Positions 11,702 through 32,401 of a stretch of 52,039 nt of DNA are shown here, piece by piece. Every line of letters begins with the position of its first letter. Position 1 is the stretch's first letter. Position numbers and translations under genes: made by a program. The notes under the pieces were generated by a model. That model was not told the DNA's origin and did not search any database. It saw only the letters and a program-made list of their open reading frames with translations. The DNA comes from an uncultured Candidatus Saccharibacteria bacterium (GTDB taxonomy: Bacteria; Patescibacteriota; Minisyncoccia; Minisyncoccales; GWA2-38-27), in the NCBI GenBank assembly GCA_964509645.1, contig CAZDXV010000003.1, positions 1 through 52,039 of the forward strand. Reading direction: 5' to 3'.

Positions 11702-11705
11702 CTTT

Positions 11706-11714
11706 TGGTATAAT
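11706..11714 (+). promoter_or_regulatory. Extended -10 element (TGGTATAAT) positioned 6-7 nt upstream of the ATG at 11721 (possible leaderless start)
   Basis: TG-n-TATAAT read directly. No room for a Shine-Dalgarno between it and the ATG. Confidence 0.35.
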
Positions 11715-11720
11715 ACTGTA

Positions 11721-13970
11721 ATGGGAGATAAACTGAATAAACTAATCGGGTTTTTGAAGAAAAAAGGATTTCTTTTGTTTTTGGTTTTAATAATTTTTCT
11801 TTTCTTTGGCTGTCGAATAACCGCTGCCTCTGTCCCTATAGCAAACCCCAGTGTTTTTACCGCTGTATGGTCAATTTTTACAGGAAACTCTTCTACAGTA
11901 AAGTCTCTTGTTAATATTACAGCAGGAACCTTTCTAATGACTATTAACTTTGTTATTATTTCTTTTGTCCTTACTCTAGCAAATCTTTGGCTCGGCACAT
12001 CAGTATTTGTTCTAGAGTGGGTCATGAGCCCTGATTTTATATCTCTTTCTTATACAAGGTTGGATAACCCTATAATAAAATACGGATGGGACATGACAAG
12101 CGGCCTAGCTAATATGGGCATTGTTTTGGCTTTAATAGTTATAGGGTTGGCCACTATATTAAGAAAAGAAAATTACCAGGCACAAAAAACTCTTCCCGTC
12201 TTAATAATTGTAGCCCTTCTGGTAAATTTCGCTCCCGTATTTTTAGGCGTCATAGTCGATGCCTCCAATATTTTAATGAACTTATTTTTATCGACGGAGG
12301 AGGGAGGAACCCTTGATTTTGCCAAGATTAGCAATTCTTTTAGCGAAGAGATCAAAATGATAGGGACAGACCTAGGAGAGGCTGCTAGTCTACAAGCGCA
12401 AACTGCTCTTCTAGGAAAAATTTTAGTTTCAGTTAGTTTTTCTTTGATAGCCGGTTTTATTTTCTTCTTGTTTGCCGCCCTGTTTGTTTTTCGCTATATC
12501 GCTATCTGGATAGCTGTAATAATGTCTCCTTTAGCTTTTGTAGCTTATATTCTTCCCAAAACAAGAGTTTTTTTTGATATGTGGTGGAAGCAGTTTCTTT
12601 CCTGGTGTTTTATAGGGGTAATAGCTGCTTTTTTCATTTATTTAGGGGCTCACATGATAGCTTCTATAAATATTGAGGACTATGTGCAAAAAACAACCGA
12701 TGCGCGCATTGACTCTAAAATAGGAACAGGAAATGATGACTGGGGCCTTTTAAATGAACTCCTTCCTTATGGAGTAGTTTCTGGTTTTCTAGTAATAGGC
12801 TTTTTCTTATCCGTCTCTGTAAGCGCTATGGGAGCCAGTACTATTGTTAATTTAACTAAAAAAGGAGGAAAGGGAGCAATGTGGGGAGGAAAGGGATTGG
12901 CAAGACAAAGCGTCGGTCGAGCTCTTAATAGTAGCTGGGGCAAAAAAGCTTCAAGGTGGATGGCTAGAAGACAGATTGGCCGCGTTCGAGACGCAAAAAC
13001 CACCTTGGGAAAGGTTGGCATGGCGGCGGGAAAATTACTTACGCCCCTCGGCTATGCTAAGAGAAAAGCAGGAGCGGCTGCTATTAATTATGCAGCGGGA
13101 ATAGGAGATAATATTAATGAGGACAAAGAGAAAATAAAGAAAAGATTTGGCAGCGACCACGAAGCCATGGCAGCTTATGTCTCCTCTCTTTCTGCCACAA
13201 ACTACACAGGGAAAATGGCTGGCGCTCAGGCCTTAGCGGAAATTAAAGGAGGAAAGGGTCTTGATGCCCTCCCTGAAACCGATTTACGCAGCATTATCAG
13301 GCAGACCGACAGATACGATCCTAAAAAGTTAAAGAACCTTATAAAGCACAAACCAGAACTTATAAAAGATGTCCAACTTGGAGAATTAATTCAAAACAAT
13401 CTTGTAAATGAAAAAGATATTATCGAGCAAATGAAGGGAGGCATGGATATGGCGACAGCTAAAGTAAAGGCTACCTATAAAGAAGCAGCTAAAGCCCTTA
13501 AAAGTACTGATATTGAAAATCTTGGAGATAAAACTCTTAACGACAAAGATATCCAAGAGGCTCTCGGTAAATATGCTTCTAATTCTATCCTTAAAGAAAT
13601 AGGAGAAACAAAAGGAGGAAACCACCTTGCTAATATCCAGAAAGCCATTCAAGACAGAGTAGGAATAGAGGAAGCGGCAAGAACTAATCCTTCTTTCTTG
13701 AGGATGGCCTATACCCCCGGAGGCCAGGCATATCTTAATGAGTGGAAAACACCCGGAGGCAAAATAATAAAAACAAAAGAAGAGATGGATGAGTTTATTA
13801 GAAAATCTTCGTTATCTCAAGAAGAAGAAACTAAAAGAGAGACAAACGCTATAAAAAAATATCAAGAAACCTTAAAAAAGGGAGGGGCTCCTCGAGGCAG
13901 GAGGGCGCCAGGATCCTCTCAGGGCAGAAAATCCAATAATGACAATACTCCCCGGGGAAGAAGATCATAA
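11721..13970 (+). CDS. VirB6/TrbL-like polytopic membrane protein with long hydrophilic K/G/A-rich C-terminal tail
   Basis: At least 6 predicted TM helices in the first ~400 aa, then a ~360-aa charged tail, an architecture typical of VirB6/TrbL-family channel proteins. An alternative upstream start at 11685 overlaps rsmA. Confidence 0.45.
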   Translation: MGDKLNKLIGFLKKKGFLLFLVLIIFLFFGCRITAASVPIANPSVFTAVWSIFTGNSSTVKSLVNITAGTFLMTINFVIISFVLTLANLWLGTSVFVLEWVMSPDFISLSYTRLDNPIIKYGWDMTSGLANMGIVLALIVIGLATILRKENYQAQKTLPVLIIVALLVNFAPVFLGVIVDASNILMNLFLSTEEGGTLDFAKISNSFSEEIKMIGTDLGEAASLQAQTALLGKILVSVSFSLIAGFIFFLFAALFVFRYIAIWIAVIMSPLAFVAYILPKTRVFFDMWWKQFLSWCFIGVIAAFFIYLGAHMIASINIEDYVQKTTDARIDSKIGTGNDDWGLLNELLPYGVVSGFLVIGFFLSVSVSAMGASTIVNLTKKGGKGAMWGGKGLARQSVGRALNSSWGKKASRWMARRQIGRVRDAKTTLGKVGMAAGKLLTPLGYAKRKAGAAAINYAAGIGDNINEDKEKIKKRFGSDHEAMAAYVSSLSATNYTGKMAGAQALAEIKGGKGLDALPETDLRSIIRQTDRYDPKKLKNLIKHKPELIKDVQLGELIQNNLVNEKDIIEQMKGGMDMATAKVKATYKEAAKALKSTDIENLGDKTLNDKDIQEALGKYASNSILKEIGETKGGNHLANIQKAIQDRVGIEEAARTNPSFLRMAYTPGGQAYLNEWKTPGGKIIKTKEEMDEFIRKSSLSQEEETKRETNAIKKYQETLKKGGAPRGRRAPGSSQGRKSNNDNTPRGRRS

Positions 13971-19533: not shown

Positions 19534-19978
19534 TTTTAGAGATATAAAAAAAGAAACAGAAGAATTTTTTAAAAGAGCAAAGCTCAATATTTCTTTAGAG
19601 GTTAAGAGGTCTAAAGAAGAAAGTATTTCGGTGGAAATCAGGACAGAAGAGCCAAAGCTTCTGGTGGGTCATCAGGGGCAAGCTTTGGCTGATATTCAAA
19701 AACTTCTTAATCTTTTTTTAATGAAGAAATTTCCAGCGCAGAGATTTTTTGTTAATCTCGATGTAAACGGATACAAGGAAAAGAAAGCAGAATATCTAAG
19801 AGAAGCTGCCAGAACAGCAGCAGACGAAGCAGTTATTTCCGGCCAAGAACAAAAGCTCGGCCCTTTACCCGCTTTTGAAAGAAAGGTTATACATATGGAG
19901 TTGTCTGAAAGGAATAATGTTGAAACAGAAAGTGCAGGAAAAGAGCCCGAAAGAAGCGTTGTTATAAGGCCTCTTTAA
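19526..19978 (+). CDS. Jag/KhpB-like RNA-binding protein (KH + R3H)
   Basis: Position after yidC. LLVGHQGQALADIQKLLN (KH-like) and a C-terminal R3H-like segment. The stop overlaps the stop of the convergent gene at 19975. Confidence 0.6.
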   Translation: MDNFRDIKKETEEFFKRAKLNISLEVKRSKEESISVEIRTEEPKLLVGHQGQALADIQKLLNLFLMKKFPAQRFFVNLDVNGYKEKKAEYLREAARTAADEAVISGQEQKLGPLPAFERKVIHMELSERNNVETESAGKEPERSVVIRPL

Positions 19979-21204
19979 TCAGTTTCGGGTTCTAAGCTTG
20001 TTGAGTAAGAAATTATATACATTTTCTTTGCGGCAGCTACAGGCACAAGGCGATCTTTGTTCTCTCCTTCTGGGATAGCATGCTCCCAGGTTATAATAGC
20101 ATCGTCGTTAAGAAGCGAAGGATCGTTTCCTTTTTTTACAGTATAAAAGCCCGGATCTGAAGAAGAAATTCCTTCTTCTTTTATTAAAACCACCATCAGG
20201 TTGCCCTCTATTCTTATAGATTCTGGGCTTTTCCCTCCTAGGCTACTAACACTAAAGTCCGGAACTCCCAAACCAGAGCTTTTAATCCAAGGTATGGTTC
20301 CGGAATCGCAAGGACCAGAATCTCCTCCGTCAGTAGAATATTTCACGGTAGAATATTTCACGCAGGGTCTACCAAGTCCATAGTTGAAGTTTTCTTCGCT
20401 ATAAAGAGTAACACTCCAAGAGGGGTCGGGGTTTAGGTCTAAGGCAAAAGAATACATAGAAGAAACATTGCCAAGGGCTATTGGTTTTTCTGTCGGATTA
20501 TTATCTCTGTTTGGCATAAAAATTTGCAATTTTCCTCCAAAATCCGGTTTTTCAAAAAGTATAGTTCCATATTTCCTTTTTTCTGTAGGGACTAAATATG
20601 CGTACTTAAAATCTCTCCGAAGACCGGTAACAGCTCCTGTCCTGCTAATACAGTATTTTATTACATCTTTCATTATTAGTTCGTAGTCTTTTTTTATTCT
20701 TTCCCTGTTTTCTATATTTTCATCTGAAGCTTCAAGGCCTTTGTATTCTTGTGCCAGGGTCCAAGCGCTCTGCATTCCAACTTGTCTTTCGCATAAAACA
20801 ACCCCCCTGGGAAGATCAGCAATAAAAGGAACATTAGACTTCATTTCCAGAACTGTTAATTTTGGATTTATAGTGTTTGCTATTATCCACGATAAAAAAA
20901 TAATCAAAATCCCGACAAGAGCTTTTGTTATCCAGTCCTTAGCATCTTTTGTTCCCTCAGGGTTTCCGGAAGAGGTCATATAGCGAAAGCCTGCCCATAT
21001 TAAAACTCCTAATCCTATTAATCCGCTTATAGCTATTGCAAAAAAGTATATATATTTAATATAGTTCCCGATTTCAACAGTAGTTTTTGTTATTTCATAA
21101 TTTCCTACCCTTGGATAATCTACCTCTAAAGGCCTTTGAGCTAAACAAGCTCCAGCTAAGGATAAAAAAAGAATTAAAAGAATGAAAATAATTATTTTTC
21201 TCAT
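19975..21204 (-). CDS. Pilin-like paralog 3 of the tandem array: signal peptide, conserved LEVDYP mature N-terminus, two-helix hydrophobic hairpin, unique ~300-aa C-terminal domain
   Basis: N-terminal module YIKYIYFFAIAISGLIGLGVLIWAGFRYMTSSGNPEGTKDAKDWITKALVGILIIFLSWIIANTINPKLT is alignable by eye with the two upstream paralogs and with 2176-3045. ATGA-type overlap with the upstream gene. Confidence 0.55.
   Translation of the reverse strand: MRKIIIFILLILFLSLAGACLAQRPLEVDYPRVGNYEITKTTVEIGNYIKYIYFFAIAISGLIGLGVLIWAGFRYMTSSGNPEGTKDAKDWITKALVGILIIFLSWIIANTINPKLTVLEMKSNVPFIADLPRGVVLCERQVGMQSAWTLAQEYKGLEASDENIENRERIKKDYELIMKDVIKYCISRTGAVTGLRRDFKYAYLVPTEKRKYGTILFEKPDFGGKLQIFMPNRDNNPTEKPIALGNVSSMYSFALDLNPDPSWSVTLYSEENFNYGLGRPCVKYSTVKYSTDGGDSGPCDSGTIPWIKSSGLGVPDFSVSSLGGKSPESIRIEGNLMVVLIKEEGISSSDPGFYTVKKGNDPSLLNDDAIITWEHAIPEGENKDRLVPVAAAKKMYIISYSTSLEPETD
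20332..20361. repeat. Perfect 15-nt in-frame tandem duplication (GTAGAATATTTCACG x2) encoding VKYSTVKYST
   Basis: Read directly from the sequence, inside CDS 19975-21204. Confidence 0.8.
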
Positions 21205-22394
21205 TTTATTATGATTTTTTCTGTTTGTTCTAATATTCTTAAAATTTCATCGCAAACAGCTGTAATTCTATTTCCAAAAGATTTAAGCGTTTGCTTTTCT
21301 TGTATTATCTGAGCCATAGGGCAAGGATTTCCCCCGCTGCAGCTTATGGGGGAGCATTCTAGAGTGTTATGGCATCCGCCGGAGCATTCCCCCTGGCAAA
21401 GATTCCTTACATTATCCAGGCATCCGGGTATGCCAGCTGTCCCGTCAGGAAGCTTGGAAAGCTTGTCGGCCGCCAGAGAAGCCCCTGTTATTGTTTCAGA
21501 GAGCTCCTGGAGTTTCGTTTCTAACTGACTGTAAAGATCTATTCTTAGTTCAGCTTTTTCCAAGCTTTTTTCCAGTTCTCCTTTAAGGTAATCGCTTTTT
21601 TCTACAGACAGTTTTTCTTTGTAAAACTGGATTTCTTTTTCAAGGTCTTTTATATGCAGAAGAAAATCTTTTCTTTCTGCTACAGCTCTTTTTCTATAAT
21701 ATAGCAATTCGGACAAAGAGGCAACGAGATTCTGCTGTTCTTCTTTAATTCCTTCTTCGTCAGGGCAGGGCTGGTTTTCAGAGCCCGCATAACAATAAGC
21801 AGCCTCGCACCCCCCTCCCATGTAGCTTCTGCAAAGACAGAGAGGGTTAGTCAAATTACAGTTGCATTTGCTGGTTAAAGAATGAAGACGGCCTGCTGCA
21901 ATTATCAATCCAGGATCTTGATTTATAATAAGCTTTGTTGTGTCTGCTATTTCGCTTATGCGCCACAAATAATTAGGATAAGCCGGAGGAGCCAGAGGAG
22001 GAGCAGGCTCTGGAGCGGGAAGATTTTTAAACTCTTTTGTTGTTAAATCTATTAGAGTGAGCTGGGGATTAATATTCTGTAAAATCAAGAAAGAGGCCAA
22101 AATGATAATAATTCCCCAAAAAGCCGAAGTTATTCTGTCTTTAGCAATTTGCATTTTAGAAGGATCTCCTGCTGAAGTTAAATATCGGGCTCCTGCGTAA
22201 ACTAAAGACCCTAAAGCTAAAAAGCCGGAAACGGCCACTACAAAGTTAAAAATATACTTTATATACTCTGGAAAAAGGTTTTTAGAGGCGGAAAAGCCAG
22301 GATAGTTCACCTCTAAAGCTCTTTCTTGAGCTAAAGCAAAAGCGAAAAAGAAAAGAGAAAAAAAGATAGCAATTGTTAGTATTTTTTTATTCAT
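21201..22394 (-). CDS. Pilin-like paralog 2: signal peptide, LEVNYP N-terminus, two-helix hairpin, then Cys-rich module / coiled coil / Cys-rich module
   Basis: N-terminal module YIKYIFNFVVAVSGFLALGSLVYAGARYLTSAGDPSKMQIAKDRITSAFWGIIIILASFLILQNINPQLT. Cys-rich blocks CNCNLTNPLCLCRSYMGGGCEAAYCYAG and CLDNVRNLCQGECSGGCHNTLECSPISCSGGNPCP flank a ~100-aa coiled coil. Confidence 0.55.
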   Translation of the reverse strand: MNKKILTIAIFFSLFFFAFALAQERALEVNYPGFSASKNLFPEYIKYIFNFVVAVSGFLALGSLVYAGARYLTSAGDPSKMQIAKDRITSAFWGIIIILASFLILQNINPQLTLIDLTTKEFKNLPAPEPAPPLAPPAYPNYLWRISEIADTTKLIINQDPGLIIAAGRLHSLTSKCNCNLTNPLCLCRSYMGGGCEAAYCYAGSENQPCPDEEGIKEEQQNLVASLSELLYYRKRAVAERKDFLLHIKDLEKEIQFYKEKLSVEKSDYLKGELEKSLEKAELRIDLYSQLETKLQELSETITGASLAADKLSKLPDGTAGIPGCLDNVRNLCQGECSGGCHNTLECSPISCSGGNPCPMAQIIQEKQTLKSFGNRITAVCDEILRILEQTEKIIIK

Positions 22395-25300
22395 TTATTT
22401 GGGCAGAGCAACAGAAAAAGTTTAATCTATGCCTGTAGCCAGGTATTTTTTCAGATCCTTCCAAGCCAGAATAGTTCTGCTCCTGCAAAAGGAGGCATCC
22501 TTGAAGACATAAATTATATTCTTCCATGTTTTCTTTAAGGTAGCATTTTTCCAGGCAGGGTTGAAAGAAGTCTTCTTCTCTTGCGCACCCTTCTATCAGT
22601 CCTTTTTCCGGAGTAGTTTTTCCTATTGAGCGATTGCAGGGGAGAAGGTTTCCTCCGTGCTGAGGCTCGCAGACGAGCATGGGCTGTCTTACTTTAAGTT
22701 GTAAGTCTTTTAGAATAGGAGGGATGATGCTTTCTATAATGCTTCTTAACCCGATTTCTTCTTTAGGAGTTTTTTTCTGCATTCCTTTTTTATCAACGAT
22801 TTTTGGATTATCTATTATAAAATTTATACCGTTTTTTCTTTCTAAAATCTGCTGTATTTTTTTAGCTTGTTCGGATATTTCTCCGTAGGGACAAGCAGAT
22901 CCTTCGCACCACTCGTCACAGCCCACCAAATCTCCGTCATCGAATACCGGGATGCAAACAGAATAGCAGGAAGGAGATTGAGAGGTGCACTTGCTTATTA
23001 AAACATGAAGCTTGTCTACTTCAGAAATTAATTCTCGGTCCAGCTCTATTAGGGTCTGCATTTTTTCTGTCATTAGGCTTCCGGTTCTTAGCGTTCTTTC
23101 TACTATGTCTCCTAAAGGAATTTCATTAAAACAAGCTTCAGCTCCTAAAGTTATTTCTTTGTTTCCTAAGGTTCCTACGGGGTTTTGAGTAGAAAGGATG
23201 TTTCCTCCTATTAAGCAGAGAAAAGAAACCCATTCGGAAACGGTTTCGTTTTGCTTTGTTAGATAAGGAATTATAATATCATCCCAGAAAGGAAATTGTC
23301 TTACTATTCCGCTTTTGTTGGCGATATAGGATTCTTTGACGGGGAAAAAGTGGCTTAAGCTGTTTTTTAAGTTGTAGGGACAGTTATCTGTAAAGTCGGC
23401 AGCTCTCTCTAGTCTGTCTAATGCTTCCTGAAGATCCTCTCTTTCTTTTATGGTTTTTTGTTGTTCCTGTCTTAGGGAGGGAATTAAATTGTCAGTATTC
23501 TCATTTTGAAGCCTTTCTATTTCTCCCCTAGAGCTTGCACAGGTGTCGCAAGTACAAGAACCCGAGGAAAAGGCTCCTATAATAGCTTGAGGCCCTCCAA
23601 ACAGCCCCCCCAAACTAGCTAGCTCTCCTAAAATAGGAGAAAGCTCTGGAGCTATTGCGGCCAAGTCAGAAGCCGCAGCCATTATGTTAGAAAGATCGCC
23701 CGGGTTTTGTATTAAGCCAGCTATACCAGCGTACTCTCCTAAAAACTGGGACAACTTATCTGCTTCAGGGATTATTTGAGAGAGATCATTTAATCCGGCC
23801 TGAATATTGCTTAAGTCTGTGGGGTCTTGAATAACAGCGGCTAGATTTTTAAATTCTCCTAAAAATTGGGATAATTCAGCCGCTTCGGGTATTACTTGGG
23901 AAAGATCGTTCAGGGCTCCCTGAAGTTCCTGAAAGTCAGTCGGGTCTTGGATAAAAGAAGCTATTCCCTGCAGGTTTTCAAAATATTGGGAAACGTCTTC
24001 TAGTTGGGGAATCACAGCAGACAGACTATCTGTTGCCACTTGGAGGTTCTGGAAATCTGTAGGGTCTTCTATTAAAGAGGCTATACCGGCGTACTCTCCT
24101 AAAAACTGGGACATCTCTCTTGCTTCCGGGAAAAATTGGGAGAGATCGGTTAGAGCTGTTTGAATGTTCCTCATGTCCCTTGGGTTTTGAATTACAGCAC
24201 CTATTCCCTGAAAGTCATTTAATACAGAACTTATTCCTCCAAGCTCCGGAACTATCAGAGAAAGATCTTCCATGGCCCGCTGCATATTTCTTAGGTCCTC
24301 CGGCTCTTTGATAGCAGAAGCTACCCCCTGAAAGCTTCTCAAAGCTTCTGTGAAGCCGTGATGGTCTGCTGTGATATAGGTAAGCTCCATAGCTAGTTTT
24401 TCAAGGTTCTCTATTCCGGACATGTCTCTAGCTATAGCTGAAATTTCTCCGAAGTCTTCCAGCAATACAGCGGCTTCCCTAGAGTCTTTTGATAGAAAAG
24501 AAAAGTCCTTTAAAACCCGAGATATGTTTCTTAAGTCAGAAGGATTTTCTACTGCCCTGGAAATGCTGCCTACCCCTTGAAAAACCTCTCCTGCGTAGGG
24601 CGTCATGCTTCTCATCTCAATAGTGATTCTTTTTACTTCGGTTAGGTTCCCTGTTCTCTCAGCTATCTTTTCTATTTCTTCTAAAGTGCTTACCAGATTT
24701 TCGCTCGGAACTACATGAATAAAGTTAAGATCTTCTTCTAAAATTCGGACAAGCTCTTCTGTGTTTTCTGTCTGGTTCCTTTTTTCTTGAGCTATATCCA
24801 GAATCTGCTCTAGGTGGGCTGAATTTTCAAAATTATTAGAAAGTCTGCCCATAGACTCTATTAGTTCGGGGTATTCCTGGTAGCTTTGGGAAAGAGAAAT
24901 CGCTTCATAGGCCTTGTCAAAAGCTATGGGAATATCTTGAGAACTGCTTAATCTTCTAGCTATTCTTTCTGAAGAAGAAAGGACGGTATCCAGATCAGCG
25001 GGGTTTTCTGTGATAGCCCCCAAGTCCCTAATTGTTTTAAAAGCCGGAGTGAGGTAGGCGTTAGCTCCTACGATATTGCCTATGCTTTCCAAAGAGGCAA
25101 AAGTTCTGGAAAGGTTTTCGGGTTCTTCTGCTATGGAAGCTATGTTATAGGCAACGTTGAAAGTTTCTCCTAAATCTCCCGGAGCGTTTAAAATAGTAGC
25201 AATGTTGGAGGCAGCTCCGACCATAGTAGAGTATTCACCCGGATTTTCAGCTATTAAAGCTATATTATAGCCCACATTGAAAACATCCTCTATTCTTTTA

Positions 25301-26706
25301 GATCCTCCGATAGAATCTAAAACTCGAGCAATGTCTTTATTGGAATTTAAAACTGAGACGGCGTTAGTAGGATTTTCAGCTACAGAAGCTATATCGTAAG
25401 CTGTGCTAAAAACCCCGGAAAGATCGCCTGGTACTCCTAGCATGTTCGTTATATTAGCGACAGATCCCACAAGAGAAGAATATTGTGTTGGGTTTTCTAC
25501 GATAGAAGCTATGTTATACCCTATATTGTAAGTATTTCCCAATTCGCTTGTGACGCCTAAAATATTAGTAAGGTTTTCTGTAGAGCTTAAAATGCTTCCC
25601 AGGTTCTCGGGATTCTCAGCTATTAAAGCCACCTGGGTGGCTATAGAAAAGGCCTTGGAAAGATTCGCCGGCACTTCTACTATTTGAGATAGATTATTTA
25701 AAGAGCCAACCATCCCCGTAAGGTTTTGAGGATTTTGAGTTATGCCGGAAATCTCTCCGACAATATCAAAAACTTTAGGAAAGTTCTGAGAAAGTCCTAA
25801 GCTCTGCGAAAGGCCATCTATAGAATTTAAGACTCCAGACAGCTCCCCTATGTTTCCTGTTCCTTGGGCGACAGACTCCGATAATTTTAAAGCAAAACTT
25901 AAATTGTCTGGTCCTAACATATCAGAAAGGCTTTCCATAATACTTGAATAGGCTAATAGGCCCTGAGGGCCTAAAATATTTGTAAGGGGAGTAGCTCCCA
26001 TCGGACTGCAGCTTGGAGGCCATCCGCAAACAGGATCTGCCTGACTACAATCGCACTGCTGGGCTAGGCTGTCTAACTGCTTGCTGTTTTGAGACAGCTT
26101 TTTTGATATGTCCAGAGTTGAAATGGCATTAGTTGATATTCTTGTTATTCTGGGAGTGTTTTCTGGGACGCTGTTGGGGTCTGAAATATATGTTTCAAAA
26201 ATATCGCCTTCAATGATTCTTCCTATGGGAAGCTCTACATGGATTGAGGTATTGGCAGATAAGATTTTGGGGTTTGGGACATCAGGTATTTTTTCAACTT
26301 TTACTTCTTTTACTTCAAAGGGTTCTAAAGAAATAAGATCTGGACTTATCACGCTTAAAACCAGATAAGAGGTTAAGAGAATGAGAATGCCAAAAAAAGC
26401 AGAAGAAATAAGCTCTTTGGCCTTAGAAAGGTTGGTGGGATTTCCGTAAGAAAGAAGATAAAGTACTCCTCCATAAGCTATAACCCCAAAGGCTACAAAC
26501 CCTAGAATCCAGATAGCCAGTCTGAAGAAATAATTAATGTATAAGGGGAAAGCTTGGTTCGGATGAACTCTCTGTAGAAAACTTTGGGGAGGCTCTGCGT
26601 TAGGAAGAGTGGGATAGTTTATCTCTAAAGCCAAAACAAAATCTGCTCCCAAAGAAAATAAAAGGAGCAAAAAACAGAATAAAATTATTTTCTTTCTTTT
26701 TCCCAT
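22387..26706 (-). CDS. Giant (1439 aa) pilin-like paralog 1: signal peptide, LEINYP N-terminus, two-helix hairpin, Cys module, ~800-aa array of ~40-aa repeats, coiled coil and C-terminal Cys-rich modules. Putative fibre or tip adhesin
   Basis: N-terminal module YINYFFRLAIWILGFVAFGVIAYGGVLYLLSYGNPTNLSKAKELISSAFFGILILLTSYLVLSVISP. Two repeat families: ENPxxxxxxLxSxxNIxxxLGxxxxLxxxFxxxYxIAxxA, and (D/N)PxDxxN(I/L)QxxxxDLSxxxPExxxxSQFLGExxxxAxxIx. Cys modules QCDCSQADPVCGWPPSC and CTCDTC...CYSVCIPVFDDGDLVGCDEWCEGSACP. Confidence 0.6.
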   Translation of the reverse strand: MGKRKKIILFCFLLLLFSLGADFVLALEINYPTLPNAEPPQSFLQRVHPNQAFPLYINYFFRLAIWILGFVAFGVIAYGGVLYLLSYGNPTNLSKAKELISSAFFGILILLTSYLVLSVISPDLISLEPFEVKEVKVEKIPDVPNPKILSANTSIHVELPIGRIIEGDIFETYISDPNSVPENTPRITRISTNAISTLDISKKLSQNSKQLDSLAQQCDCSQADPVCGWPPSCSPMGATPLTNILGPQGLLAYSSIMESLSDMLGPDNLSFALKLSESVAQGTGNIGELSGVLNSIDGLSQSLGLSQNFPKVFDIVGEISGITQNPQNLTGMVGSLNNLSQIVEVPANLSKAFSIATQVALIAENPENLGSILSSTENLTNILGVTSELGNTYNIGYNIASIVENPTQYSSLVGSVANITNMLGVPGDLSGVFSTAYDIASVAENPTNAVSVLNSNKDIARVLDSIGGSKRIEDVFNVGYNIALIAENPGEYSTMVGAASNIATILNAPGDLGETFNVAYNIASIAEEPENLSRTFASLESIGNIVGANAYLTPAFKTIRDLGAITENPADLDTVLSSSERIARRLSSSQDIPIAFDKAYEAISLSQSYQEYPELIESMGRLSNNFENSAHLEQILDIAQEKRNQTENTEELVRILEEDLNFIHVVPSENLVSTLEEIEKIAERTGNLTEVKRITIEMRSMTPYAGEVFQGVGSISRAVENPSDLRNISRVLKDFSFLSKDSREAAVLLEDFGEISAIARDMSGIENLEKLAMELTYITADHHGFTEALRSFQGVASAIKEPEDLRNMQRAMEDLSLIVPELGGISSVLNDFQGIGAVIQNPRDMRNIQTALTDLSQFFPEAREMSQFLGEYAGIASLIEDPTDFQNLQVATDSLSAVIPQLEDVSQYFENLQGIASFIQDPTDFQELQGALNDLSQVIPEAAELSQFLGEFKNLAAVIQDPTDLSNIQAGLNDLSQIIPEADKLSQFLGEYAGIAGLIQNPGDLSNIMAAASDLAAIAPELSPILGELASLGGLFGGPQAIIGAFSSGSCTCDTCASSRGEIERLQNENTDNLIPSLRQEQQKTIKEREDLQEALDRLERAADFTDNCPYNLKNSLSHFFPVKESYIANKSGIVRQFPFWDDIIIPYLTKQNETVSEWVSFLCLIGGNILSTQNPVGTLGNKEITLGAEACFNEIPLGDIVERTLRTGSLMTEKMQTLIELDRELISEVDKLHVLISKCTSQSPSCYSVCIPVFDDGDLVGCDEWCEGSACPYGEISEQAKKIQQILERKNGINFIIDNPKIVDKKGMQKKTPKEEIGLRSIIESIIPPILKDLQLKVRQPMLVCEPQHGGNLLPCNRSIGKTTPEKGLIEGCAREEDFFQPCLEKCYLKENMEEYNLCLQGCLLLQEQNYSGLEGSEKIPGYRHRLNFFCCSAQINE
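23590..25990. repeat. Intragenic array of ~114-120-nt (about 38-40-aa) tandem repeats, two sub-families, about 20 units
   Basis: Long near-identical DNA stretches recur, for example ctataccRgcgtactctcctaaaaactgggaca at ~23713 and ~24072, and ctattccctgMaRgt. The periodic protein motifs are listed above. Confidence 0.6.
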
Positions 26707-26709
26707 AAT

Positions 26710-27147
26710 CTAGCTGCCTTTTAGATGGTAATAAACAGCTAAGGTCCAGAAGGGGGCAAAATCTCCCACAAAGGGGATTATTTCTCCTAGAAAAGCGAGG
26801 CCAAGTTTTTTCCCTATCTTTTTAGCTATTTTTTTCGTCAACTTATTTGCTCCCTTAGACAGGACAACTCCTCCAGAGGGGCTTAAGAGCATCAGGCCTC
26901 CTATAAACACTATGCCGATAATATCAAGGATATAGGAAATAGGAATCCCTATTCCAAAAAAACTTAAAACAAAAACAACAAGCCCTACCAAATCCAAGAC
27001 AATAGCCAGTAAAAACAGGATAATCCCGTACAGGCTTAAGAAATTTCCTATCTTTTGTATTTCATGAGCTGTTTCTTCTGCTCTATCCTTTGGTTTTTCT
27101 TCTCGGGTGTTTTCAGAAAGATTTTCTTCTTTTTGATTTTCTGGCAT
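26710..27147 (-). CDS. Small polytopic membrane protein (145 aa, acidic N-terminus, 3 TM, basic amphipathic C-terminal segment), function unknown
   Basis: Hydrophobic segments LSLYGIILFLLAIVLDLVGLVVFVLSFFGIGI and ILDIIGIVFIGGLMLL. Start abuts the VirB4-like gene stop. Confidence 0.5.
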   Translation of the reverse strand: MPENQKEENLSENTREEKPKDRAEETAHEIQKIGNFLSLYGIILFLLAIVLDLVGLVVFVLSFFGIGIPISYILDIIGIVFIGGLMLLSPSGGVVLSKGANKLTKKIAKKIGKKLGLAFLGEIIPFVGDFAPFWTLAVYYHLKGS

Positions 27148-30100
27148 TATCCTTCAAGCTCTTTTTTAGCTTGTTTTATTTTTTGGACTTCTTCTGGAGC
27201 TGTAGTTATTATCTGATCTTCTGCGTAGGAAGCTCTAATCTTCATCAAGATATGTTTGTTTCCGGCAAAAAATATGCCTTCCCCCACGGGAGACTCTAAA
27301 AGAAGCATTTTTTCTTCGTCGGTAAGGCTAAAGGTTTTTTGAACCATGTCTATGGTGGCAGAGCTTTGTTTCATCAAGAGAGTTAAAGATGAGTTTGTTA
27401 TAATCGGCTTTCCGTAGTCAGATTTCATAAAGTCGTTAATGTCCTGAGTTATGGTAGTTACTCCCAGCCAGTATTTTCTAGCTCTTTTAACTGTGCCAAA
27501 AAGAAAGGAGGCGCCGTCTTCGTTATTCATCAGCCACCAGGCCTCATCTATTATTAAAAGCCTTTTTTTCATTTTAGAAGTTACTGTTTTCCAGATATAC
27601 CTTAGAATAATGAAAAGAGCCATAGGCCTTAATTCGTCTTCCATATTTCTTATGCCAAAAACCACCATCCTGTTTTTAACGTTAACGTTAGAAGGGTTGT
27701 TGAAAAACTTCGAGTAAGCTCCCGTGGTAAATCTTTGTATTCTTCTTACTAAAGATTCTCCTCCCTCAATAGTAGATAGTACGCTTTCAAAGTCGCCTAG
27801 AGTGGGGAATGGAAGCTCTTTGCCCCATTGCTTCGGGTTGGATTCTGCTGTAATGTCTTTAGCGGCATACGTTTCTGTTATGGCTTTGTCTATAATAGAG
27901 TCCTCTTCCGGAGAAAGCCCTCCTAGCATGACTCTTATCAATCCCACTAGATTTATTACGTTAGATCTTAAGACATCTTCTGGGCTTTCGTCTTCGCCCG
28001 GAACAGGTAAGTCAAAAGGATTTATATGGCTGTCTGAAGCAAGAGAAATATTAAAGAAAGATCCTCCCACGGCGTCGCACAAGAACTTATATTCGTTTTC
28101 GGGATCTATTACAATGCAATCCGTTCCAAGCATTAAAGATCTTAAAATTTCCAATTTTACTGAATAAGAGTTATGAACAAACATTCCTCCTTGGCCAGCT
28201 AAAAAGACTTCGTTGTCTACGGTTAGATCGTAAACATAATTTTCTTTTTTGTTTTTAACTTTTTCGATTTTAACAATTGGATCCCATAAAAGATTAGAGT
28301 TAGCTAGCACTTTTAGCTGTTCCAGTTTTTCTTCGACCAAGGGCACTTTGTTATTCAGCATTTTTTGGTAGTTTTTCCAGACAAACCGGCTTGCTTCTTG
28401 GATTGTTTCATAGGAACAGTTTTCTTTTTTATTTTGAACTAATATTCTCTGCAGAGCAGGTTTCTTATGGTATTTTATTTGAAGGCCCATTTCTTTAAAT
28501 CCAGAATGAATTCTTTCTTTTAGAGCCACCAGAGAATAATTGTCTCCGTTAATTGTCTTTATAGCTTTGAATGCATTTTTTGAAAGGGGCTTAAATTTTT
28601 GGTTTTTCATTATTCCCCAGCTCCAGCCAAGATTCTCCCATAATCTGCTATTTAATTCTTGGCTGCCTTTTCCGGTTTCAATAATCCAAGCTAAATCAGG
28701 TATTTCTTCTAAAATTTTAAGAGTTGGTTCCAACTTTTTAAACTGCTGAATTCTCTCTTCGATTTTGTCTATTGTTCTTTGAAGCTGTTTTGGGGAGGGG
28801 TTATAGTTTCCCAATTTCAAGGCGGTTACTTCACGGATGCCGTACAGCTGAGGAGAAAATAAATCATATATTTCTTGGAATACTGACTGGAGACCGGGAA
28901 CAATATCAATATTAGTATTGCCCCTTTTTCCTGTAATTTGCTGAAGTTTCCCTCTTTTTTCCTTAGAAAGAAAATTAATGTTTTTAGCAAAACTTTCTAG
29001 GTTTTCTTGTCCTGATATTGTCAGTTTGTAGTAGGTTTTTTTACGCTTCCAATCAGAAGTTTTCTTCTTGGTTGTTGATATTCTGCTAATAATTCCAAAG
29101 CAGTATAAAAGATAAGATATTTCCGAAACTAGCCTTTTTGACTTAGAAGCGGCAGTTACTGAAGATTTTTCTACTCCTCCATCTCCTTCAAAGTAGGCTG
29201 ACAGATAGCCAGCTATCTTTGCTTTCTCCATATTAAAGATAAAAGGACAGACTCTTTTATGTCCCGATTTACCAAAGCCTCCAAGCTTTTTTACTAATTC
29301 TAAATAGATTCGGTCGGAAGAATTAATGCCTTGGTTTCCATAAAAGAAAGGAATATTGAGCTTTTGGAAGCAGTTATCTATTTCCTGCAAAACCTCTTTA
29401 TTTAGGTTGCTTATCATAATTGCTTTTTCTCCCGTAGTTCCTTCTGCTGCGATAAACCCTAAAAGCTTTAAAAAGGGAACTGTTATAGGGAAATTAATTG
29501 GCAAGGAATATTGTTTTCCTCTGTTCTTTGAAGCAATTTTTAAACGTTTTATTTTTTTGCTGTCGGATTTAATTTTTAAAACACCAAGAATTTTCCAGAA
29601 ATACTTGATAGGAACAGGGCGGCCGTCTCTATATTTATAAAGATAACGGTCGTATTTTTGAGATATAACGGTCTTTTTCAAAATATCGTAATTTTTTCTT
29701 ATAAGGTCTCCAGCTTCCCTCACATAAGCTTTTTCTGAATTTTTAAGAATATTCAAGAGGTTGATATATGTTAACTCCCCCTTTTGGACTACCTCTTTAG
29801 GCAAAGGAACGTATTCTCCCTTTTTAATTTCAGAGCTTTTGGCGGCTATAACTTTCCCCTTTTTTAGAGCTAGCATATTGTGATCTCCGGTAGTAGTAAT
29901 TTCCCTGCCGCTTTTTGTCTTAAATTTGTAAAAATATTTGGGGGCGTCTTTTCTTGCGGCAACGCTTACTTTAGACCATTCCCCTTTAAGGTCTTTGTTA
30001 AAACTGAAAACCTCTATTTCTGGATTAACTACCCCTTCTAAATCTTGGTCGATTTTAGTTAGCCCTTTTCTTTTTATTAGGTTTTCGATCAAGGGTCCTA

Positions 30101-30938
30101 TCTTTGACATTTTGGTTTTGCCTTTTTCTTTGAATAATACCGGAGTAGAAGCAACTACGCTTTTCCCGGCTCCCGAGACTGCGAAGACGCATGAGTTCGG
30201 ATTGGGAAGAGTGAACCTGTCAAAGAGGACCAGAGAATTATTATGCTTGTTTATGCCGTAAAGTATTCCTTCATTAGAACTTAAGTCAAAAGAGATAAAA
30301 GGAAAGGTGGAGGAAAGAGGAGAGGTATTCATTAGGGTTGTTACTCCCAGAATATCCAACCCGTAAGGAGAGCTGGAAACAAAACCTTCTTTCTGCTGAT
30401 AAAGGGCCGGTTTAATATATATGAGGCGGGATTCTAAAATAGATCTTAAAGTTGTTTCTGTTTGTCTCAGTTCTTTTTCTGAATCGCCGTATACTGTAAC
30501 ATAAAGAGAAAATCTAAACATTCTTTCTTGGGCTGTCTGGAGCCTGTCTCTTAATTCTTCTAGATTTTGATGGGCAGCTTCCAGGGTTGGATCTCTAATC
30601 AATCCCTTTTCTTCTCTTTCTGCAACTTCCGCCTGGACTTCCGTTACTCTTCTCCTTAACTTCTTGAGAATATCTTCTGTCGGAACAGGGTGCAGGTGAT
30701 AGGAAATATCAAGAGGAACATTCAGGTTAACTAAAGGGGAAAGCCAACCCGTTTGAAGGTACCGGGGGTAAGAAAAAACAAAATATGTTTTAGCCAGCTT
30801 TTCTCCTATTGCAAGATAATTCTGCTTTAATTGTATAAAGGAAGGGGCTACGATATCCGAAATCCTCAGGGGTTCCTCAGATATTATTTCATCTGGTATT
30901 TCTGATCTTTTAAATTTGTCTAAAAAAGGTATTTTCAT
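27147..30938 (-). CDS. VirB4/TrbE-like type IV secretion ATPase (C-terminal ~600-aa portion of the family fold) interrupted by a ~664-aa intein
   Basis: Walker A AVSGAGK|S...(intein)...|SYSVKLEIL. Walker B LLIIDEAWWLM (the DEAW signature of VirB4). GVTTITQ motif. PRYLQTGWLSPL...PLDISYHLHP region typical of VirB4 linker/N-domain. ATGA overlap with the upstream 209-aa ORF. Confidence 0.75.
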   Translation of the reverse strand: MKIPFLDKFKRSEIPDEIISEEPLRISDIVAPSFIQLKQNYLAIGEKLAKTYFVFSYPRYLQTGWLSPLVNLNVPLDISYHLHPVPTEDILKKLRRRVTEVQAEVAEREEKGLIRDPTLEAAHQNLEELRDRLQTAQERMFRFSLYVTVYGDSEKELRQTETTLRSILESRLIYIKPALYQQKEGFVSSSPYGLDILGVTTLMNTSPLSSTFPFISFDLSSNEGILYGINKHNNSLVLFDRFTLPNPNSCVFAVSGAGKSVVASTPVLFKEKGKTKMSKIGPLIENLIKRKGLTKIDQDLEGVVNPEIEVFSFNKDLKGEWSKVSVAARKDAPKYFYKFKTKSGREITTTGDHNMLALKKGKVIAAKSSEIKKGEYVPLPKEVVQKGELTYINLLNILKNSEKAYVREAGDLIRKNYDILKKTVISQKYDRYLYKYRDGRPVPIKYFWKILGVLKIKSDSKKIKRLKIASKNRGKQYSLPINFPITVPFLKLLGFIAAEGTTGEKAIMISNLNKEVLQEIDNCFQKLNIPFFYGNQGINSSDRIYLELVKKLGGFGKSGHKRVCPFIFNMEKAKIAGYLSAYFEGDGGVEKSSVTAASKSKRLVSEISYLLYCFGIISRISTTKKKTSDWKRKKTYYKLTISGQENLESFAKNINFLSKEKRGKLQQITGKRGNTNIDIVPGLQSVFQEIYDLFSPQLYGIREVTALKLGNYNPSPKQLQRTIDKIEERIQQFKKLEPTLKILEEIPDLAWIIETGKGSQELNSRLWENLGWSWGIMKNQKFKPLSKNAFKAIKTINGDNYSLVALKERIHSGFKEMGLQIKYHKKPALQRILVQNKKENCSYETIQEASRFVWKNYQKMLNNKVPLVEEKLEQLKVLANSNLLWDPIVKIEKVKNKKENYVYDLTVDNEVFLAGQGGMFVHNSYSVKLEILRSLMLGTDCIVIDPENEYKFLCDAVGGSFFNISLASDSHINPFDLPVPGEDESPEDVLRSNVINLVGLIRVMLGGLSPEEDSIIDKAITETYAAKDITAESNPKQWGKELPFPTLGDFESVLSTIEGGESLVRRIQRFTTGAYSKFFNNPSNVNVKNRMVVFGIRNMEDELRPMALFIILRYIWKTVTSKMKKRLLIIDEAWWLMNNEDGASFLFGTVKRARKYWLGVTTITQDINDFMKSDYGKPIITNSSLTLLMKQSSATIDMVQKTFSLTDEEKMLLLESPVGEGIFFAGNKHILMKIRASYAEDQIITTAPEEVQKIKQAKKELEG
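28170..30161 (-). mobile_element. Intein (HINT domain + LAGLIDADG homing endonuclease) inserted in the VirB4 P-loop
   Basis: Block A SVVASTPV directly after GAGK. Block B GREITTTGDHNML. LAGLIDADG-like motifs LKLLGFIAAEGTTG and KIAGYLSAYFEGDGGV. Block F YVYDLTVDNEVFLAGQGG. Block G MFVHN followed by +1 Ser. Splicing out restores SGAGKSYSVKLEIL. Confidence 0.75.
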
Positions 30939-31564
30939 GTTAAGTCAGCTGGTATTTCAGGGTAATATCCTCTTTCCGCTTCAAGAGGATGATGAAGGCC
31001 CCAAAAAAGCTCAGCTAGTTCCAAACTTCTTAAGGGAACAGCCTCTATTCCACAAGCTCTGAGCCCTAAAATTACAAACTCTACCCTTTGAAAAAGCTGA
31101 TTTTTAGCTCTTTGAAATTCTACTTCTGTGAGCTCTGTTCCTTTTTGAAATTTTTTAGCAGTTGATATTCCTCTAGTTTCAGCAATAGAGAAGGGAACGG
31201 CGACATAGAAGCTTTTTTGCATTATGGATCCCTCTTGAACAAGATTTTTAATAAATTTGTTGTATTCGGAAATCTGCATCTGGAGAAGCTCCTCTTCCTC
31301 TTTTTTTTCTATTTCTTCAAGCTTTTCAATATATCCTGTAATATTTATCTTTCGGGAGTTGACTATTATTTGGCAAGAAAAGTCTAGGGAATTGAGAAAA
31401 CTTTGGAAGGCGTAAAGAATAGATTCTTGCTCTTCGTCTGATTTTAAAGCAAAGTTTACAGAAGAGGCCATCAAAACCACTCTCAACCCCTTATTTTTGA
31501 GAATCACTACGCCGTCTCTTATTCTGTTGAACTTTAAAAAGTCTTGGGTTGTATTTTTGGCCAT
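30935..31564 (-). CDS. VirB4 N-terminal-domain-like protein (209 aa), apparent split-off N-fragment of the ATPase
   Basis: No TM. VVLMASSVNFALKSDEEQESILYAFQSFLNSLDFSCQIIVNS resembles the conserved N-terminal CagE/TrbE/VirB segment of VirB4 (G.d.e.ls.ee....l..ll..l). 209 + 599 aa (without the intein) is about canonical VirB4 length. Stop overlaps the downstream ATG (ATGA). Confidence 0.45.
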   Translation of the reverse strand: MAKNTTQDFLKFNRIRDGVVILKNKGLRVVLMASSVNFALKSDEEQESILYAFQSFLNSLDFSCQIIVNSRKINITGYIEKLEEIEKKEEEELLQMQISEYNKFIKNLVQEGSIMQKSFYVAVPFSIAETRGISTAKKFQKGTELTEVEFQRAKNQLFQRVEFVILGLRACGIEAVPLRSLELAELFWGLHHPLEAERGYYPEIPADLT

Positions 31565-31566
31565 AT

Positions 31567-31968
31567 TTATTTTATTTTGAGTCTGGTGGAAAGATCTTTA
31601 AGCTTGCTTCTTTCTGCCAGCTTGGGTTCTTTCTTCTCTATTTCTTTTTCAATTGTCTGCTCCCTTCTTCTTTTTATTTTAGGAGGGCTCGTTTTTTTCT
31701 CCCAAAGATAAACTTTAGGCTCTGTTAAGAAAGAGAAAAAGTTTTTGATTACAATAGGCAAAGGAGTCTTCTTTATCTTTACGAAAGCTAAAGAGAAAGC
31801 TATTCCCATGATAAAAGCAGCTGAAACAATAAAGGTTGTAAAAGATACGGTAAAATACAGGAAAAGGCAGAGGCCTCCAGCAACACCTACAAAAACAAAC
31901 TGTTTAAAAGTAAAAGGACCTACTATTTTCGCTTCTCTTTCTATAAATTGTGGAATTGTAAACTGCAT
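31567..31968 (-). CDS. PrgI/VirB3-like small membrane protein (2 TM) preceding VirB4
   Basis: MQFTIPQFIEREAKIVGPFTFKQFVFVGVAGGLCLFLYF has the PrgI-family pattern (IP..I...KI.G.T.RQF......). Two TM helices and a basic C-terminal tail. Position immediately upstream of the VirB4 genes, as in Gram-positive type IV secretion operons. Confidence 0.5.
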   Translation of the reverse strand: MQFTIPQFIEREAKIVGPFTFKQFVFVGVAGGLCLFLYFTVSFTTFIVSAAFIMGIAFSLAFVKIKKTPLPIVIKNFFSFLTEPKVYLWEKKTSPPKIKRRREQTIEKEIEKKEPKLAERSKLKDLSTRLKIK

Positions 31969-31969
31969 A

Positions 31970-32401
31970 TTATTCTGCTGTCACTTCTCTGTATTTATCT
32001 TTTTTGGAAGACTCTTTTTTATTAGGTTTCTTAATTTTTTCTTGGTAAAGCCCTTCTAGCTCTTTCTTAAGAGGCAGAAAAACTAAGGCTTCAATTTCAG
32101 AAGCTATGTTGCCTGAAGTTTTTTTGTCCAAGCCCATTTCTTCTTCTAAAGTTTTTCTGAATTCGGAGGGAGCGAGAAGTCCTGAAAAGACATAACCTAT
32201 GTTTTTTGTAATTTCTGATACTCCTTTTCCTTCTACTTTATTCTTTTTGCAAGCTTCGTTAATGTTATCTGCTACCTTTTCTGAGAAAAGAGCTTCTTGC
32301 AGGGTTTCGGGAAGATCTTTATAAAGCTCTTGAAGTTGTTCTTTTGGATAATTTGGCATGATTGTCTTCGATTTATTATAACATAAAGAAAAAAGCAACA
32401 A
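31970..32401 (-). CDS. Hypothetical soluble protein (about 130-143 aa), first gene after PBP and before the secretion-like operon
   Basis: ORF only. A more likely start is the internal MPNYPKEQLQ (32359). No recognisable motif. Confidence 0.35.
   Translation of the reverse strand: MLLFSLCYNKSKTIMPNYPKEQLQELYKDLPETLQEALFSEKVADNINEACKKNKVEGKGVSEITKNIGYVFSGLLAPSEFRKTLEEEMGLDKKTSGNIASEIEALVFLPLKKELEGLYQEKIKKPNKKESSKKDKYREVTAE

Follow-up and report, generated by a model that had tools for sequence, protein, structure and literature searches.

A conserved type IV secretion operon beside oriC in a Patescibacterium, with large proteins built on a pilin-like module

Introduction

What is a bacterium of the Patescibacteria doing with a set of conjugation-type genes beside its origin of replication, in a neighbourhood where no relaxase is found? 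The question is raised by a contig of an uncultured Candidatus Saccharibacteria bacterium (GenBank assembly GCA_964509645.1, contig CAZDXV010000003.1, positions 1 to 52,039), the whole 52-kb stretch of which is called the window here and supplies all coordinates. An original prediction, made from the letters alone, had drawn attention to an operon on the minus strand at 19975-31968 and had read it as a pilus or attachment system derived from a type IV secretion system (T4SS). Our analysis points with good confidence to the core operon of a chromosomal, conjugation-derived (MPF-FATA-like) T4SS typical of Patescibacteria, lying beside oriC in a Nealsonbacteria/Paceibacteria-type genome. Hidden Markov model (HMM) matches, together with the synteny that 80 related genomes share, support both the seven-gene operon and its assignment to a T4SS.

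The original prediction called the linkage to giant Cys-rich repeat adhesins poorly described; the system itself is by now covered by a literature. The same gene set, near dnaA and without a relaxase, has been found across Patescibacteria (Quinonero-Coronel 2025, PMC12102498) and in part by Wang 2023 (PMC10633639) and McLean 2020 (PMC7427843), and the system has been reviewed (PMC12857230). Southlakia epibionticum cannot grow as an epibiont without its homologous T4SS cluster and pilin array (PMC10633639, PMC12857230), and among Paceibacterales that parasitise methanogens, proteins with a T4SS-pilin domain belong to the most highly expressed genes of unknown function, for which a role in adhesion has been proposed (PMC10936435). 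Cultivated relatives of the clade attach to methanogenic archaea (PMC10936435; a bioRxiv preprint). No T4SS before that of Patescibacteria had been shown to be indispensable to its own carrier bacterium. The locus described here leaves the accepted picture unchanged. What it adds to the published accounts consulted here, namely the VirB4 intein of this lineage, three classes of ectodomain with their rapid divergence, the small genes o143 and m145 and an inversion across oriC, are refinements.

The operon and its genomic setting

The seven co-directional minus-strand open reading frames (ORFs) of the operon fill 19975-31968 exactly, as had been predicted, with no intergenic gap larger than 3 nt and with overlaps at four of the six junctions (Table 1). 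The accompanying claim that most junctions are ATGA overlaps stands as far as tight coupling is concerned, but a literal ATGA occurs at only two of the six. Simple scans of the operon for internal promoters or terminators returned none that was convincing above shuffled expectation. The remainder of the window is taken up by housekeeping genes (those of the CCA-adding enzyme, PNPase, KsgA, DnaN, DnaA, RnpA, YidC, Jag, PBP1, TyrRS, RuvC and YebC), and the G+C content of the operon is that of its flanks.

For comparison we used the 80 closest relatives at the level of species, metagenome-assembled genomes of Nealsonbacteria, Paceibacterota and Parcubacteria whose VirB4 is 62-93% identical to the one in the window. 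The survey of gene order that the original prediction had called for gives a clear answer, in that the order o143-prgI-trsD-virB4-m145-pilin genes-jag-yidC-rnpA-dnaA-dnaN recurs across these 80 genomes; where genes for pilin-module proteins are absent downstream of virB4, they usually adjoin trbL.

Among the window ORFs of at least 100 residues, no Pfam match was obtained for relaxase, VirD4 or VirB8-11 families, in agreement with the original prediction, nor was any competence gene matched. Likewise, no relaxase, type IV coupling protein, VirD4 or TcpA linked to mating-pair genes in the context of a mobile element was found within the 52 kb, and the features that define such an element as conjugative are not seen in the window. 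One might consequently regard the locus as the decaying, non-functional remnant of an integrated conjugative element, a view to which the absence of the usual conjugation partners from the window and the interruption of the ATPase gene by a selfish element (see below) would lend themselves. We give this view next to no credence: the ORFs are all intact and tightly coupled, the operon shares the G+C content of its flanks, 80 species-level genomes have kept its order and content in a housekeeping context close to oriC, and the splicing motifs of the selfish element are all in frame. A decaying mobile element was therefore rejected on synteny, intact ORFs and composition.

In its content the locus agrees with the T4SS described for the Patescibacteria clade (PMC12102498), exemplified by SEML1_0006-0019 of S. 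epibionticum (PMC10633639): it combines a VirB4 related to MPF-FATA, an adjacent TrsD, a PrgI/VirB3 protein and an array of PF18895 proteins with a weakly supported VirB6 candidate, it lies on the chromosome near dnaA, dnaN, rnpA and ksgA, and in both cases no relaxase or coupling protein stands nearby. Unlike in those accounts, where inteins go unmentioned, the VirB4 of the window carries an intein in its P-loop; the pilin-module proteins are 289-1439 residues long with conserved ectodomains, whereas arrays elsewhere have been described as small proteins (PMC7427843, PMC12102498); and an inversion spanning oriC has parted the VirB6 block from the VirB4 block.

Two small genes accompany this set. 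In most related loci (53 ORFs) the gene immediately preceding prgI is a homologue of o143, which encodes a small soluble protein and matched no Pfam family. Its mechanically called ORF in the window extends to 32401 from a TTG codon, and its stop lies 1 nt from the start of prgI; as annotated here it is an eighth conserved gene of the locus, outside the operon as originally drawn. The second, m145, keeps its place after virB4 and ahead of the first pilin-module gene in 43 loci and has 212 representative clusters at E <= 1e-3 in a set of 1.8 billion proteins, with no Pfam or PDB relative and no NCBIfam assignment. The idea that m145 might be a divergent pilin was rejected on an hhalign probability of 1.4% and the lack of any Pfam or PDB relative. 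Both o143 and m145 are candidates for system-specific subunits.

The putative membrane platform: PrgI, TrsD and VirB4

Is this machinery indeed that of a T4SS? The HMM searches that the original prediction had proposed for VirB3 and VirB4 gave significant matches for both. The PrgI-family protein with two transmembrane helices scores just above the Pfam cut-off for PF12666 (E 2.8e-6, 28.2 bits against 27), has hydrophobic segments at residues 19-37 and 45-63 by hydropathy, and has orthologues in 75 loci. The protein that had been described as resembling the N-domain of VirB4 has its gene flanked by prgI and virB4 in 75 loci and gives three NCBIfam matches, all below the full-length cut-offs: to VirB4_plasma (positions 101-233 of 894, E 4.5e-8), to conju_CD1110 (positions 2-124 of 752, E 2.6e-6) and to the TrsD model (E 2.6e-4). 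Such TrsD-like proteins are the most abundant VirB4-associated component in Patescibacteria (PMC12102498). The intein-free VirB4, an extein of 599 residues, exceeds the conju_CD1110 cut-off (372.9 bits against 325) over positions 180-732 of 752 and aligns without a break to the C-terminal domain of a Thermoanaerobacter VirB4 (PDB 4ag5, E 1.7e-40). The two proteins thus tile a full-length VirB4 of the CD1110 type, which supports the notion of a split VirB4. Significant HMM matches and the DEAW and TQ motifs, both located in the extein, also uphold the identification of the VirB4 ATPase core, in which an intein of 664 residues had been overlooked.

This intein is inserted inside the Walker A motif (AVSGAGK|S...HN|SYS). 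It begins with Ser1 (SVVASTPV), carries block B as TGDH at residue 91, the LAGLIDADG motifs LLGFIAAEG at 233 and LSAYFEGDG at 320, and block F as VYDLTVDN, and it ends in FVHN before Ser+1, both nucleophiles being serines. All splicing motifs are kept and in frame; the NCBIfam models of the N- and C-terminal intein regions, TIGR01445 and TIGR01443, are matched above their cut-offs, and Pfam adds PF14890 (Intein_splicing) and PF14528 (LAGLIDADG_3). Its G+C fraction is 0.349 compared with about 0.39 in the exteins. The intein is absent from the related genomes, where Walker A is contiguous in 80 of 80 VirB4 genes (ORFs of 525-662 residues). The nearest relative, L001, whose VirB4 is 93% identical, has the exact empty site GAGK|SYF, gapless and colinear at the DNA level. 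Related inteins of 50-58% identity occupy exactly the same site in at least three metagenomic VirB4 genes, and about 20 database clusters of Parcubacteria-type lineages pair VirB4 P-loop domains with such an intein, proteins of Harrisonbacteria, Portnoybacteria, Yanofskybacteria and Pacebacteria among them. Five VirB4 inteins, from Firmicutes and Proteobacteria, were catalogued before (Novikova et al. 2016, PMC4760082); the present one resembles them in being class 1, in its LAGLIDADG endonuclease and in its insertion into an ATPase Walker A motif, and differs in its host, a chromosomal VirB4 of Patescibacteria, and in its Ser1 and Ser+1 nucleophiles. Judged by its motifs and occurrence it is probably a sporadic homing element of known type. 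The P-loop is otherwise split, so VirB4 would become active only after removal of the intein, and splicing ahead of ATP binding could serve as a conditional switch. The element would also mark gene flow among bacteria of the Patescibacteria type.

Beyond the clade, the closest comparison is with the Gram-positive MPF-FATA systems (Prg of pCF10, Trs of pGO1 and the CD1110-type VirB4 of CTn2). The locus shares with them a VirB4 above the CD1110 cut-off, PrgI and TrsD homologues and a monoderm architecture without VirB7, VirB9 and VirB10. It differs in that the relaxase, coupling protein, PrgB-type adhesin and mobile-element context of those systems were not found here, and in its VirB2-like modules, which those systems do not have.

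With a VirB4 nearest to conjugative MPF-FATA ATPases, one may ask whether the machine takes up or exchanges DNA, as a ComB-like T4SS for competence or conjugation would. There are also weak matches to CedB and CedD of the archaeal DNA importer, and the ABY1 class has comF, recG and radA next to the cluster (PMC12102498). Nevertheless, we see only a slim chance that this is its role. Relaxase, coupling protein and competence gene were all unmatched among the window ORFs of at least 100 residues; competence of S. epibionticum needs type IV pili and ComEC, and deletion of comEC leaves its viability unaffected while the T4SS is essential (PMC10633639, PMC12857230); and relaxases are rare in Patescibacteria, with 109 in a whole survey (PMC12102498).

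The pilin-module proteins

The three tandem proteins at the end of the operon, classes A, B and C, had been described as paralogs with a conserved LE[VI][DN]YP sequence and a hairpin resembling VirB2/TrbC, a description that our results bear out. They have in common an N-terminal module of about 120-150 residues (28-40% identity, E 1e-17 to 1e-23) that comprises a signal peptide, an LE(V/I)xYP motif and a pair of hydrophobic helices with a short loop containing G-x-P between them, and the LE[VI][DN]YP motif is kept in orthologues. Matches to PF18895 (T4SS_pilin) fall within the first ~120 residues, two of the three tandem proteins scoring above the cut-off, and classes B and C also match NF045849, the NCBIfam family of a pilin-like protein of mycoplasma integrative and conjugative elements (ICEs). 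The AlphaFold model of class B places the helices of the hairpin at residues 41-73 and 78-108 (predicted local distance difference test, pLDDT, ~75-79). The structural check suggested in the original prediction accordingly yields a signal peptide and a helix-loop-helix matching T4SS_pilin, and no unrelated fold. The fourth pilin-like copy that had been placed some 17 kb away is also present, and in relatives its gene, pilD, lies between ksgA and trbL.

The ectodomains that follow the hairpin had been said to diverge completely, which slightly overstates the case: classes A and B share a weak similarity just past the hairpin, including a CxC-x6-C motif, and each of the three is conserved among orthologues, the C-terminal regions of A, B and C each recovering their own positional orthologues across genomes. 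By this measure the proteins fall into three classes of orthologues, each with a large ectodomain of its own that is conserved. Searches of the PDB with ectodomain sequences and profiles found nothing significant.

Class A was originally taken for a giant Cys-rich repeat adhesin. Its layout is that of a signal peptide, a VirB2-like hairpin, a Cys-rich segment, 40-residue helical repeats and a Cys-rich C-terminal domain, so that the repeats themselves are free of Cys and only the parts that flank them are Cys-rich. A BLAST self-comparison showed no off-diagonal alignments, and the repeats were hence defined by motif spacing: fourteen units at 40-residue spacing, each opening with [EQK][NDE]P, with two longer and less regular stretches interspersed among them. 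No tandem repeat was detected in the gene at the DNA level, which led us to reject a recent expansion and suggests that the copies are old and diverged. Orthologues of class A vary in length from 440 to 1477 residues.

In class B, the signal peptide and hairpin are followed by a Pro-rich linker and a helical-bundle ectodomain. An alignment of 19 sequences contains 14 invariant Cys and an invariant His342, and the Cys residues fit an extracellular, disulfide-bonded domain. The AlphaFold model (mean pLDDT 80.9, with values above 90 over most of the ectodomain) predicts a disordered linker, a long helical bundle and two Cys-rich beta-hairpins past the hairpin module; fold searches with it matched only generic helical bundles, and no specific functional analogy is therefore justified. 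The model of class C, with a mean pLDDT of 48, is confident for the hairpin alone.

Are these proteins pilins at all? Hydropathy, the model and the matches to PF18895 and NF045849 all give the signal peptide, the two hydrophobic helices and the short polar loop that characterise VirB2, TrbC and TraA pilins as well as Mbov_0395, the mycoplasma ICE pilin-like protein. A mature pilin subunit of the VirB2/TraA type has roughly 70-120 residues. With 289, 397, 409 and 1439 residues the proteins of the window are no such small subunits; their mature forms are 3-15 times longer and have large C-terminal extracellular domains. The 130 pilin-module ORFs in the 80 loci have a median of 487 residues, only 4 of the 130 falling below 200, so that within this clade it is large proteins that carry the VirB2-like hairpin, as a module at their N-terminus. 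Their topology, with a pair of hydrophobic helices after the signal peptide, puts the C-terminal domain outside the cell. Provisionally, then, we regard the proteins as membrane anchors for large surface domains, and the label pilin should be read as equally provisional.

These same properties invite the view that the proteins are Sec-exported, anchored adhesins that form no polymer and can do without the T4SS ATPase, their linkage to it reflecting no more than co-regulation. Their size is great for pilins, the cleavable signal peptide and hydrophobic helix pair that each of them has suffice for anchoring, and such proteins have been regarded as candidates for membrane-anchored adhesion (PMC10936435). 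We hold this to be rather unlikely, though deserving of real weight: the genes remain beside virB4 or trbL across 80 genomes in spite of rearrangements, the hairpin matches a pilin family and not a generic anchor, and S. epibionticum requires both the pilin array and the T4SS (PMC10633639). Very unlikely, in our judgement, is a Ptl-like exporter whose downstream signal-peptide proteins are released effectors or toxin subunits and not structural components, as McLean et al. proposed by analogy with ptx/ptl for the Sec-signal array of TM7x (PMC7427843). Two long hydrophobic helices past the signal peptide that match pilin HMMs fit subunits of a membrane or filament and not soluble toxins, and no toxin family was matched by the ectodomains.

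Compared with L001, against which all identities in Table 1 were measured, the pilin-module proteins are 63-72% identical and the machinery 81-93%. The surface proteins thus diverge faster, as expected of a surface in contact with a host. Long, of three classes and fast-diverging, these "pilins" point to host recognition.

Outside the window, two proteins of other Parcubacteria with a T4SS_pilin module, P0053 and P0054, carry a beta/gamma-crystallin domain (PF00030) past the hairpin, which indicates that the module is paired with different ectodomains in different lineages.

Table 1. Features of the locus, with the junction to the next gene of the operon and the identity to the nearest relative, L001
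Feature	Coordinates	Strand	Assignment and remarks	Junction with next gene	Identity to L001
o143, small soluble conserved protein	31970..32359	-	Upstream of prgI; probable ATG start at 32359
PrgI/VirB3-like, two transmembrane helices, 133 residues	31567..31968	-	PF12666	prgI/trsD: 2-nt gap	81%
TrsD-like, free-standing homologue of the VirB4 N-terminal domain, 209 residues	30935..31564	-	NCBIfam	trsD/virB4: 4-nt ATGA overlap	88%
VirB4 ATPase precursor, 1263 residues	27147..30938	-	P-loop_TraG, AAA_10, TraC_F_IV, Intein_splicing, LAGLIDADG_3	virB4/m145: 1-nt overlap	93%
VirB4 N-extein	30162-30938	-
Class-1 intein with LAGLIDADG homing endonuclease, 664 residues	28170..30161	-	VirB4 residues 260-923
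VirB4 C-extein	27147-28169	-
m145, small polytopic membrane protein, 145 residues	26710..27147	-	Synteny	m145/pilA: 3-nt gap
Class-A pilin-module protein (pilA), 1439 residues	22387..26706	-	PF18895 E 3.2e-4, below cut-off	pilA/pilB: 8-nt overlap	67%
Class-A repeat region, residues 324-1045	23572..25737	-	Motif spacing
Class-B pilin-module protein (pilB), 397 residues	21201..22394	-	PF18895 E 2.5e-8; NF045849 E 3.2e-8	pilB/pilC: 4-nt ATGA overlap	72%
Class-C pilin-module protein (pilC), 409 residues, mostly beta ectodomain	19975..21204	-	PF18895 E 3.3e-9; NF045849 E 1.1e-7		63%
VirB6/TrbL-like, polytopic, long hydrophilic C-terminal tail	11685..13970	+	PF04610 E 9e-4; probable start 11721
LysM and M23 peptidase protein	9686..10639	-	Pfam LysM, Peptidase_M23
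Membrane protein with Cys-rich DUF7107 and two PG_binding_1 domains	7475-9271	+
Fourth pilin-module protein (pilD), 289 residues	2176..3045	+	PF18895 E 2.2e-6, above cut-off

The VirB6-like gene and the inversion across oriC

A VirB6/TrbL-like gene had been noted some 15 kb from the operon. The gene exists, with a product of seven hydrophobic segments; its match to the family is weak, no PDB relative was found, and TrbL is matched by 5 of its 26 orthologues, with a best E of 1.4e-6. Its distance from the operon has a simple explanation in the gene order. In many related loci trbL lies directly upstream of o143-prgI, as part of ksgA-(pilD)-trbL, whereas the window reads trbL+, SPFH-, dnaN-, dnaA-, rnpA+, yidC+, jag+, pilC- ... 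prgI-, o143-, PBP1-. Relative to L027, L032, L037 and others, the o143-to-dnaN block has the opposite orientation (window 11685-32401), and the order in the window is exactly that which an inversion of this block, spanning oriC, would give. The VirB6-like gene looks distant, then, because such an inversion moved an ancestrally adjacent gene, and this ancestral adjacency strengthens its link to the operon despite the weak TrbL match.

The group ksgA-(pilD)-trbL is often preceded in related loci by genes for an M23 peptidase and a peptidoglycan-binding protein, and the window genes for the LysM and M23 protein and for the DUF7107 and PG_binding_1 protein hold this position beside ksgA-trbL. VirB1-like matches with M23/LysM domains have been reported (PMC12102498), and the two proteins are tentative candidates for a VirB1-like role in cell-wall remodelling.

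Possible function

How might such a machine work? VirB3, VirB4/TrsD and VirB6 would form a membrane platform of the monoderm type, in which VirB4 would pull the hairpin modules out of the membrane and build from them a short pilus or other appendage on the cell surface. In Agrobacterium, VirB4 dislocates VirB2 from the membrane. The ectodomains would then face outwards and touch the host, that of class A as a repeat-rich rod, that of class B as a disulfide-stapled helical bundle and that of class C as a beta-rich domain. C-terminal fusions to F-pilin have been shown on F pili, which makes the display of C-terminal domains on a VirB2-type filament geometrically plausible. With no relaxase or coupling protein nearby, attachment to the host, or exchange with it, is a more probable task of the machine than conjugation, and an appendage for contact with the host is the role that we infer from the genes. 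The original prediction had matched the minimal gene set to Patescibacteria machines, of the candidate phyla radiation, for DNA uptake or host attachment; the match to the Patescibacteria T4SS holds, while the choice between uptake and attachment is one that sequence does not decide.

Several points weigh against the T4SS appendage proposed here. The family match of the TrbL-like protein of the window (PF04610, E 9e-4) lies below the Pfam cut-off, and the HMM searches recovered neither a VirB8 nor a VirB1 homologue. No pilus or appendage is on record for the Patescibacteria system. Ectodomains of 270-1300 residues on every subunit would crowd a helical filament of the VirB2 type, so that the proteins may be minor or tip subunits, may form a short or heteromeric structure, or may never polymerise. 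Splicing of the VirB4 intein is predicted from its intact motifs, and the negative result for relaxase and coupling protein covers the 52-kb window, so that either may be encoded elsewhere in the genome.

It is tempting to carry the preferred reading, a T4SS that assembles a host-contact appendage, one step further. We speculate, with low confidence, that the T4SS of Nealsonbacteria and Paceibacteria builds a heteromeric surface organelle from the three conserved classes and not a thin pilus, in which a short hairpin stalk assembled by VirB4 would carry a head of fast-evolving, host-binding ectodomains. If this were true, the organelle would be a bacterial T4SS-derived device aimed at archaeal hosts.

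Other genes in the window

Towards its end the window encodes other large surface proteins that have no relation to the pilin module, namely a protein of 1419 residues with Ig-like (Rha78A_N) and Y_Y_Y matches (46061-50320, plus strand) and a lamin-tail-domain protein (51502-52023, minus strand). Between them lies the gene for a secreted, beta-rich repeat protein of 340 residues (50437-51459, plus strand), whose C-terminal end, ...IPEPTTLILLLAGASILLRKR, looks like a sorting signal of the PEP-CTERM type, a signal that one would not expect a monoderm Patescibacterium to use. At 38608-39471 (plus strand), an ORF for a UDP-glucose/GDP-mannose dehydrogenase has only 287 residues, its match beginning at position 66 of the N-domain profile and no match being listed for the C-terminal domain of the family; it may be truncated, frameshifted or mis-started, and it stands amid genes for glycosyltransferases and PMT-type mannosyltransferases. 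Finally, a protein of 474 residues (6046-7470, plus strand) is predicted to be a Glu/Lys-rich coiled coil over nearly its whole length and matched no Pfam family, and its gene accounts for the extreme AT skew (0.486) at 6-8 kb.

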